In this document: positions 9,853-61,988 of the stretch, piece after piece | Position numbering within the stretch: the first letter of the stretch is position 1 | Layout of the letters: every line of letters begins with the position of its first letter | NCBI GenBank assembly: GCA_964016885.1 | Contig: OZ024753.1 | Span: forward strand, 44,206,001 to 44,270,000 | Length of the DNA stretch: 64,000 nucleotides | Direction of reading: 5' to 3' | Source: Eledone cirrhosa | Taxonomy: Eukaryota | Translations under genes and position numbers: made by a program | The notes under the pieces: generated by a model | What the model was told of the DNA's origin: nothing | The model's database searches: none | The model's input: the letters and a program-made list of their open reading frames with translations, nothing else

Positions 9853-10008
<156 letters not shown>

Positions 10009-10134
10009 GTAGGAGGTGAGTTTTATTGTAGTACAATAAAGCAATGCAGATATCGGATAAGAAGCACTCTACAGTTTGTAGGACTGGAGTATACATAATA
10101 TATAAGATCAAAAGATGGTTAAAAGAGTTCCATG

Positions 10135-10205
10135 TATTTTATTATGCGCATTTCAAAAACAAATATCATCATGCAATAATATTTGTGTTTACATCAGATA
10201 AAATA
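10135..10205 (-). ncRNA. Hammerhead ribozyme, family 1, inverted copy with core mutation (CUGAUGU)
   Basis: Reverse-complement copy of 10319-10389; core reads CTGATGT (A9 to U), helices retained. Confidence 0.75.
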
Positions 10206-10318
10206 GGAAGACATGATATGAAGGTTAAAAACACTTGTGGATAGTGCAGTTGATTCAAAACTGTTGATTCAAAACTGCACTATTCACAAGTGTTTTTAAC
10301 CTTCACATCATGTCTTCC

Positions 10319-10389
10319 TATTTTATCTGATGAAAACACAAATATTATTGCATGATGATATTTGTTTTTGAAATGCGCATAATAAAATA
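10319..10389 (+). ncRNA. Type I minimal hammerhead ribozyme (intact core), family 1
   Basis: TATTTTAT-CTGATGA-[AAACACAAATATTAT tgcatg ATGATATTTGTTTTT: ~15-bp helix II]-GAAA-TGCGCA-TA-ATAAAATA. Helix I is 8/8 Watson-Crick, helix III is the palindrome ATGCGCAT, predicted cleavage after AUA at 10381. Confidence 0.88.
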
Positions 10390-10439
10390 CATGGAACTCT
10401 TTTAACCATCTTTTGATCTTTTTTATATATATATACTCA

Positions 10440-10884: not shown

Positions 10885-10886
<2 letters not shown>

Positions 10887-11235
10887 GAGGGACATGGCTT
10901 AGTGGTTAGAGCATTGGCTTTGCAATCGAAAGGTTGTGAGTTCAATTCTCAGACCGGGTGATGTGTTGTTTCCTTGAGCAAGACACTTTATTTCACATTG
11001 CTCCAGTTTACTCAGCTGTAGAAATGAGATGATAGGGACTGGGGTCCATATCATTCCACTGCAAAGTGGTCATGGAGGTGCCACGGCAAAAAAGCACCTA
11101 GTACTCACTGTAAATGAGGTTGGTGTTAGGAAGGGCATCCAGCTGTAGAAATCAAGCCAGAACCAGTTCCCGTCCCACCCTTGCAAGTAGGGAAAAGCGG
11201 ACGTAAAATGATGATGATGAAATGATGATGATGAT
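10885..11235 (+). mobile_element. tRNA-derived SINE family A, full length, RTE-type 3' tail
   Basis: A box TGGCTTAGTGG, B box GAGTTCAATTC, CCTTGAGCAAGACAC body, GGAAGGGCATCC segment, (GAT)n tail. Confidence 0.9.
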
Positions 11236-18436: not shown

Positions 18437-18441
<5 letters not shown>

Positions 18442-18700
18442 GATATTAATAAATGGAAACTATATTTATAAAACCATATTTATTTCATTATACATATTTC
18501 AGGGATACCAAATTAAATTATGGTATGCCTTCATCAGACAAAATACAATATATAACAGTTTTACAAATAGGTTTGACGTACCCTTTAAAATACAACCATT
18601 ACTTTTGGAGGCTGTCTAATTTAATGTGGTATCCCTGAAATATGTATAATGAAATAAATATGGTTTTATAAATATAGTTTCCATTTATTAATATCGTATA
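18437..18700. mobile_element. Hammerhead family 2 element with partial inverted duplication
   Basis: 18437-18520 and 18617-18700 are reverse complements; the right arm starts inside the helix II loop; the left end abuts (TA)n. Confidence 0.7.
18481..18545 (-). ncRNA. Type I minimal hammerhead ribozyme (intact core), family 2
   Basis: Minus strand: TATTTTGT-CTGATGA-AGGCATACCA taatttaatt TGGTATCCCT-GAAA-TATGTA-TA-ATGAAATA. Helix II 9/10 pairs, helix I 8 bp with two G.U pairs, near-palindromic helix III. Confidence 0.85.
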
Positions 18701-18811
18701 TCTACTCCAAATATTTGTCGAGTGCTTTATATCAGTTATAATAATATTTACTTGTTGTATCCCAACAATTTTAAATAGAACTTTTGCATATATATATATA
18801 TATATATATGA

Positions 18812-57725: not shown

Positions 57726-57970
57726 AAGGACTGAACATAATAGAATCAAATTCCCATTGTCACTGCTTCCATCCCTCTCGCTCTCTCCATCTCACACTAT
57801 TATAAGTAAATGGGGCGCAAGTGCTGGTCACCTCATGGCTCCAGTGGACAGAAACTTCACTCCTCAAACCCCCAACCACTAGTGTTGGTACTACAATATA
57901 ATGTACAGTTCACACTGTAAAGCAGTAGTGTTGGTGCCACAATAAAATATATGTAATAGTCGCTTCTAAT

Positions 57971-58118
57971 AGGGTACGTCAAAATTATTTATAAAACTGT
58001 TTATATATTGTATTTTGTCTGATGAAGTCATACCATATTTTAATTTGGTATCCCTGAAATAGGTATAATGAAATAAATATGGTTTTATAAATATAGTTTC
58101 CATTTATTTAATATCGTA

Positions 58119-61647: not shown

Positions 61648-61988
61648 TCATCATCATCATTTCATTTTACGTCCGCTTTTTCCTTGCTTGCAAGAGTGGG
61701 ACGGGAACTGATTCTGGCTTGATTTCTACAGCTGGATGCCCTTCCTAACACCAACCTCATTTACAGTGAGTGCTGGGTGCTTTTTTGCCGTGGCACCTCC
61801 ACGACCACTTTGCAGTGGAATGATATGGACCCCAGTCCCTATAATCTCATTTCTACAGCTGAGTAAACTGGAGCAATGTGAAATAAAGTCTCTTGCTCAA
61901 GGAAACAACACATCACCCAGTCTGAGAATTGAACTCACAACCTTTCGATTGCAAGGCCAATGCTCTAACCACTAAGCCATGTGCCTCC
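61648..61988 (-). mobile_element. SINE family A copy, full length
   Basis: Reverse complement of 10885-11235 including head and (CAT)n tail. Confidence 0.9.

Follow-up and report, generated by a model that had tools for sequence, protein, structure and literature searches.

A type I hammerhead ribozyme motif with an unpaired C10.4 in a fold-back insertion of a Penelope-like element, predicted to cleave as a dimer

Results and discussion

The sequence at positions 10319-10389 (plus strand) of the window, by which we mean the whole stretch of 64,000 nt that was analysed, is confirmed as a genuine type I hammerhead, far beyond chance. Very probably it lies in the pLTR of a fold-back copy, non-coding and 5'-truncated, of a Penelope-like element from the Hydra clade, inserted in (TA)n, with cleavage predicted to take place only in a dimer and with the locus itself passive.

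The hammerhead motif and the insertion around it

Direct reading finds CUGANGA, GAAA and UH in type I order within 10319-10389, so that the type I hammerhead with an intact core, its coordinates and the cleavage site after 10381 are all as the original prediction had them. The features of the motif are the following:

10319-10389, plus strand: type I hammerhead motif with intact core, predicted cleavage after 10381
10319-10326 / 10382-10389, plus strand: helix I, 8 A-U pairs, read directly
10327-10333, plus strand: CUGAUGA core box, read directly
10334-10369, plus strand: helix II, made of 3 A-U pairs, the C10337.U10366 mismatch, 12 pairs (2 of them G-U) and a 4-nt loop
within 10334-10369, plus strand: unpaired C10337 (position 10.4) opposite U10366, seen family-wide
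10370-10373, plus strand: GAAA, read directly
10373-10380, plus strand: helix III, the 8-nt self-complementary AUGCGCAU, predicted to pair between two molecules
10381, plus strand: A17, which the predicted cut follows

This is neither of two known builds. The canonical fast monomeric type I build, taken as G10.1-C11.1, a 4-bp helix II, a stable helix III and a loop 1-loop 2 contact, is absent: the motif has A-U at 10.1-11.1, a 15-pair helix II and a monomer helix III probability of 0.0. The minimal hammerhead of Penelope-like elements (Cervera 2014), which the available part of PMC4209133 characterises by no helix III beyond the core, an extra base after A9 and G10.1-C11.1, does not fit, since an 8-nt palindrome is present, no extra base follows A9 and the 10.1-11.1 pair is loose.

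The motif belongs to the tail-less arm of a fold-back insertion that has a long (TA)n tract on one side and a short TA run on the other:

9894-10008, no strand: (TA)n tract, the insertion target
10009-10251, minus strand: main pLTR copy, 5'-truncated and tailed, which abuts the (TA)n tract at +134
10009-10095, minus strand: tail of about 87 nt between the two 3' end sites, with AATAAA at 10022-10027 and an ACTCC...GAGTGCT motif common to other families
10135-10205, minus strand: twin hammerhead, whose core departs from the family base at 10191 (A9 to U), a change private to this copy
10249-10276, no strand: arm junction, with a head-to-tail duplicate of a 14-nt unit, at the site where 5' junctions of the family commonly fall
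10262-10430, plus strand: inverted, tail-less pLTR copy, about -120 to +45 from the cleavage site, with a short TA run at its end

The two arms form an inverted repeat of 154 nt at 97% (10098-10251 / 10273-10426) and differ at 5 positions, including core position 9, which is U in the twin. The stretch is present in six sequencing runs from three organisms, none of them listed as RNA. Contigs of all four runs that were aligned to it read the family base and not the twin's U at 10191, and the A9U change is thus private to this copy. No coding piece of this family was found within the 64,000-nt window. The shared C10.4 mismatch, the inverted repeat and the minus-strand twin all go beyond the original prediction.

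Several other observations were made in the window. At 10135-10144, run X6 shows A>G and T>C at 5-19% of depth versus under 0.1% in run X1, an excess that may reflect either A-to-I editing of the hairpin RNA or a subfamily that has diverged. Another family is represented by a second fold-back Hydra-type unit at 18437-18787; its tail-less arm has an intact hammerhead (18481-18545, minus strand), and its tailed arm, on the plus strand, breaks off inside helix II. A solo tail-less copy of that unit's family at about 57970-58118 (plus strand, core at 58019) has a broken helix II pair and G.G at the centre of helix III. tRNA-derived SINE heads adjoin TA tracts at 10885-11200 (plus strand) and 61918-61981 (minus strand), with Rfam tRNA scores of 27.5 and 29.9 bits.

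The carrier element

Elsewhere in the genome, copies of the family continue upstream into a 3' UTR and then an ORF. One full-length copy (L049) reads (TA)n, an inverted tail-less copy, a pLTR with hammerhead, an ORF for RT plus GIY-YIG with a frame break in the endonuclease, a 3' UTR, a pLTR with hammerhead, the tail and (TA)n, which is the arrangement drawn for Penelope-like elements in PMC8557442. The hallmarks of such elements recur in the copies: a single ORF encoding RT, with GIY-YIG at the C terminus, between pLTRs in L049 and L047, and an inverted 5'-truncated copy with a one-sided tail, as in the legend to Fig. 2 of PMC8557442. Of the motifs by which the available text of PMC8557442 defines the Hydra clade, the element protein has DKT, the CxCX5C linker, no CCHH cysteine pair inside GIY-YIG, and CxxC and CxH; the RWK position reads RWI in L045 and RWK or RWR in most homologues. 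Insertion into (TA)n is also a Hydra-clade trait. The Neptune and Nematis clades were considered and dropped because the CX2-5CxxC linker and the CCHH motif are absent and the Hydra definition fits.

Pfam assigned no family to any of the four ORFs and a PDB sequence search returned no match, so that the putative assignment of the carrier to the Hydra clade of Penelope-like elements rests on motifs and on a by-eye comparison with Hydra-1_Obim, not on a tree. The element protein has 18 homologues at 30-37% identity; the nearest protein-atlas clusters carry HTH_animal, RVT_1 and GIY-YIG on varying shares of their members, RVT_1 and GIY-YIG being on under half of the members in most rows. Three other hammerhead families (L099-L102, L103 and L108) adjoin RT/EN ORFs 42-54% identical to that of this family, the stretches retrieved for the remaining families containing no ORF, and the pLTR hammerhead sits at a fixed position in several divergent families. 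At L037:5828-8129, units of this family, two of them in direct repeat, lie at the broken ORF end of a different Hydra-type element (44% identical).

Copy number and insertion ends

A tight pattern, CTGANGA-NNN-C-N14-34-GAAAT-NNNN-ATA, matched the 3.0-Gb genome 110,959 times versus 148 times for the reversed pattern, giving a motif density of one per 27 kb. Genome matches number 22,841 (exact) for 24 nt of this family's motif, 11,047 for the tail motif and 186 for the pLTR-ORF junction. The original prediction had presented this copy and its oddities as special; it is one of the 22,841 family matches, and the core was intact in 29 of 30 sampled family copies.

The 3' ends were scored at the first 30 loci along one contig, some of them insertions with both arms present and with alignments that run a few bases into TA: 15 fell at +133 to +137, 13 at +43 to +53, and one each at +33 and +13. 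Among the matches listed, the two 3' ends recur in families B, C, D and H, which also have the common tail motif. In the window the minus arm ends at +134 and the plus arm at about +45. The ACTCC...GAGTGCT motif, with a variable spacer, lies just past the short 3' end in the tails of at least five families (L001:1836, L099:4096, L119:1077; either strand), and could fold as a stem that acts as an RT binding or start signal.

No pile-up of 5' ends was seen at the cleavage site: there are 37 genome-wide joins at +1, 22 of which are a 3-nt deletion, and a start at +1 was seen in one of the 29 pLTR-ORF copies scored and in one of the 19 inverted partners. Microhomology of ATA with TA tracts could hide some joins at +1. 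The 5' joins fall at -118 to -124 in 12 of the 30 loci, and around -123 the genome holds 2,766 foreign joins, at a few offsets, versus 4,417 natural continuations; the junction in the window (10259-10262) is at this hotspot. That -123 is the transcription start of a full-length RNA is unsupported in its simple form, as none of the 29 pLTR-ORF copies begins there, and apparent 5' ends at -161, -380 and -522 proved to be alignment breaks caused by subfamily differences or internal repeats. GGTAYGTC recurs 35-45 nt upstream of the core in families B, C and H (some copies read GAT), is missing from this family, and looks like a splice donor or promoter element.

We propose that the two arms would be two cDNAs, primed from both cut target strands at two internal start sites, with a head-to-head join between them. 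Since the RNA that was copied extended across the cleavage site, the ribozyme had not cut it.

The clustering of 5' junctions could also be read as the mark of a self-propagating non-autonomous element, retrozyme- or MITE-like, in which the short fold-back unit would derive from a pLTR transcript that starts near -123 and is processed by the hammerhead. The two direct units of about 250 nt with a TA-rich spacer at L026/L037 would agree with this, as would a preprint (10.64898/2026.07.22.740005) that, in its available part, derives animal retrozymes from pLTRs. However, junction sequences vary between copies, as expected of independent insertions rather than of a master hairpin; the motifs occupy opposite strands instead of forming a tandem; the hairpin RNA is predicted to bury both of them; and the lack of pLTR-ORF copies starting at -123 speaks against such a transcript. 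We consider this origin improbable. The animal non-LTR retrozyme, which the original prediction had mentioned as another setting of such motifs, was set aside for this locus, where the partner is inverted and on the other strand, not a head-to-tail tandem; among the first 30 loci a direct dimer occurs only at L026/L037. The preferred reading stays with the 5'-truncated fold-back copy of a coding element.

Covariation and conservation across families

The original prediction had counted missing covariation of the helices among genomic copies towards its refutation; helices I, II and III do covary across families. In an anchored count, 128 distinct motifs gave 13 clusters at 70% identity, one of them a chance match (L033). 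Pair II.2 is formed in all 13 clusters and II.3 in 12 (as U-A, A-U or G-C), versus 1 of 13 for II.4. Both inner pairs of helix III are formed in 13 of 13 clusters, with shuffle means of 10.5 and 9.0, while the outer two are fixed by the search pattern. The innermost pair joins two adjacent bases, which is impossible in a hairpin, and its covariation hence points to pairing between two molecules. Across 18 hand-picked representatives, 86.7% of cells are paired versus 67.5% when shuffled and 31-50% in slid controls; two-sided changes occur at 17 of 21 pairs (7 of 8 in helix I, 8 of 9 in helix II, 2 of 4 in helix III), and none of 500 shuffles matched the percentage paired and the score, although most representatives come from a pattern that demands C10.4, AT..AT and A17, and the shuffle controls overstate significance because the families are of common descent within a single genome. 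With RNAalifold, helix II is recovered, again with a gap at position 4, and helices I and III are not.

Position 10.4 is C in 95% of matches. Motifs with another base there number 5,574 in the genome (control 428), and by eye the rows listed resemble either chance matches or the same families with one letter mutated. Motifs without A at 17 number 2,668 (control 1,719), A17 being kept in over 97% of matches before control subtraction. A descriptor scan that made no demand on 10.4 returned five families with C10.4, besides other hammerhead types without it. The only core position that varies is N7 (T 89, C 18, A 18 and G 3 of 128). The 10.1-11.1 pair is loose (GU 6, AU 4, GC 3 and unpaired 5 among the 18 representatives). 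A purely A-U helix I, which the original prediction listed as unusual, is indeed present, but it is a trait of this family, others having G-C pairs there. The other hammerhead types in the genome include a form with a 10-nt palindrome, present twice at L050 (minus strand, 9115 and 9600) in direct orientation at a distance of 485 nt, and minimal forms whose palindrome is 6 nt, at L058 (minus strand, 2325) and L067 (plus strand, 4732).

This pattern of conservation bears on whether the fold might be retained and yet rarely cut, being conserved instead for binding protein or for dimerising the retroelement RNA. Uncut templates, the looseness of the canonical G10.1-C11.1 pair, the finding that AUA was the slowest of four triplets tested (PMC1636495, available part), and the Anolis element, for which the accessible text of PMC11167929 describes insertion without need for cleavage and no reads ending at the site, would all accord with such a role. 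Against it stand the restriction of core variation to N7, the only free core position, over 128 motifs, the retention of A17, and relatives with U.U at 10.1-11.1 that cleave as dimers (PMC7229834, available part). We find a purely structural role quite doubtful, and the preferred reading remains a hammerhead that would cleave as a dimer.

Simple detection tests of the motif gave mixed results. The 71-mer alone is no stabler on folding than its shuffles (z -0.87; 34 of 200 equally good). The scan with hammerhead models that the original prediction had proposed gave no hammerhead match to the motif in Rfam at gathering or E-value thresholds, an absence that counts only against a canonical type; matches to miRNA families were rejected, as they merely reflect the long hairpin. 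In the window, a loose pattern of the core alone gives 24 overlapping matches, a number reached in 6 of 100 shuffles and so close to chance, whereas the tight pattern has 3 matches in the window versus none in 100 shuffles. With the same pattern, a helix test was passed by 29 of the first 30 own-genome matches versus 0 of 80 listed metagenome matches, and none of those 80 listed loci (of 116 stretches) folds as the C10.4-mismatch variant. That an A-U rich arrangement merely resembles a hammerhead by chance, as the folding score, the Rfam result and the loose pattern might suggest, is refuted by the covariation, the reversed-pattern and metagenome controls and the fixed pLTR position in several divergent families, and we give it practically no weight.

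Predicted folding, dimer use and the state of this copy

In the hammerhead fold the monomer is predicted at -6.4 kcal/mol, with a helix III probability of 0.0. The palindrome duplex is predicted at -10.5 kcal/mol (the palindromes of other families are weaker, -2.2 to -7.2), and a double hammerhead at -30.9 versus -13.9 kcal/mol for two monomers, a gain of 17 kcal/mol. The RNA would be cut after 10381 only when two copies pair via the 8-nt palindromic helix III. A full-length or tandem RNA would carry two pLTR motifs on one molecule, able to pair; at this locus the partner is antisense, so that cleavage would need a second RNA in trans. The covariation and the carrier element thus back the original view of the motif as a Penelope pLTR hammerhead expected to act as a dimer. 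For the isolated motif, cleavage as a dimer in vitro seems to us the more probable outcome, though this is a matter of judgement.

The copy in its genomic setting is another matter. A transcript that starts at the centre is predicted to keep helices I and II (pair probabilities 0.42-0.99), and a read-through transcript from either strand to form a 154-bp hairpin of -250.8 kcal/mol in which both motifs are buried. The description of this as a potentially active copy accordingly holds for the isolated motif only. Most likely this copy would be a passive by-product, cleaving only if transcribed outward from the centre and paired in trans with family RNA. Selection on the ribozyme would act in active parent elements, where tandem transcripts are probably processed slowly, with the aid of dimerisation or of a protein. 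A cellular role for this particular copy is, in our judgement, very unlikely.

A bolder proposal is that the motif represents a distinct dimer-only hammerhead class, in which the invariant unpaired C10.4, three pairs up a long helix II, would replace the loop 1-loop 2 contact or serve as a handle for the element's protein, and which would have spread in a Hydra-clade radiation to over 110,000 motifs in a 3-Gb genome. We regard it as speculative and on balance unlikely; if it were true, cleavage in trans between short RNAs that start at -123 would be conceivable.

Significance

Taken singly, the locus is ordinary retroelement debris; its C10.4 mismatch, the dimer-only covariation and the high motif density amount to a modest new variant. 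The hammerheads of Penelope-like elements are kept everywhere, cut poorly in vitro and are dispensable for insertion in the one reconstituted system. About a dozen divergent families in one genome amount to a natural mutagenesis of such hammerheads, marking positions kept by selection (the core, A17, the self-complementary 8-nt helix III and C10.4) and positions freed from it (10.1-11.1 and the length of helix II). The families offer cases, testable at the bench, for dimer use and for a possible new tertiary contact.

Comparison with known systems

The papers compared here are taken in their available parts. Close relatives are the Hydra-clade hammerheads of Craig et al. (2021, PMC8557442), which have the same clade motifs and (TA)n target, a type I hammerhead near the 3' end, a long palindromic helix III, a loose 10.1-11.1 (U.U closing helix II in many rows of File S2) and frequent A17; the Hydra-clade Penelope-13_HM also has an inverted 5'-truncated copy. 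They differ in that helix III starts AC.. and is mostly 9-10 nt, and helix II is short and uninterrupted; none of the Hydra rows examined shows three pairs, a C.Y mismatch and a long stem, or AU(N4)AU-A. The element described here is about 3.6 kb with a long 3' UTR, versus under 3 kb for most Hydra elements listed there.

The small-palindrome hammerheads of Penelope-like elements in D. willistoni, Aedes, M. japonicus and D. virilis (Cervera and De la Pena 2014, PMC4209133) are likewise type I motifs in pLTRs, with a palindromic helix III, a long helix II, low activity as dimers and opposite-strand pairs 100-700 bp apart. Two features that the original prediction called unusual are found among them in Fig. 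S3 (parsed from text with a displaced GAAA column): the D. willistoni row has AUA together with a palindrome of 8 nt, and in the M. japonicus row helix II is closed by an A-U pair. AUA is also the natural triplet of the ELVd(+) hammerhead (PMC1636495). Unlike these relatives, the motif described here has no extra base between 9 and 10.1 and no conserved G10.1-C11.1, and its 15-pair helix II has a conserved C10.4 mismatch where D. virilis has a helix II bulge instead. Copies are about ten times as numerous here as the 9,000 reported from Xenopus.

Poseidon PAc of Anolis (Frangieh et al. 2024, PMC11167929) resembles our insertion in its ends: both target strands are cut and extended from two internal RT starts that delimit a one-end tail, the target is AT-rich, and the hammerhead, which is protein-assisted, lies upstream of the starts. 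PAc belongs to a different clade and has a tail of 30-40 nt versus about 87 nt here, and in our element the hammerhead is about 190 nt upstream of the long frame's first ATG, without overlap. Animal non-LTR retrozymes (Cervera and De la Pena 2020, PMC7229834) share the type I fold, the palindromic helix III, dimer use and a similar total (126,247 motifs in axolotl), and U.U closure with dimer use is described in PMC3088659 as well as in PMC7229834; retrozymes differ in their head-to-tail tandems, loop 1-loop 2 contacts and circular RNAs, whereas the pair described here is inverted and, in other copies, colinear with a coding element.

Our literature search found no description of the C10.4 variant or of this carrier's hammerhead, the likeliest source, Luense et al. 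2017 on dimeric PLE variants, lying outside that search; no row examined in Fig. S3 of PMC4209133 or File S2 of PMC8557442 combines three pairs, C.Y and a long stem. For Penelope hammerheads, earlier publications already report AUA, closure of helix II by A-U or U.U, and palindromes in helix III. The part that seems new, judged by those two tables, is the shared build, three pairs followed by an unpaired C10.4 facing a pyrimidine and then a long stem, which would be a modest structural twist on a known kind.
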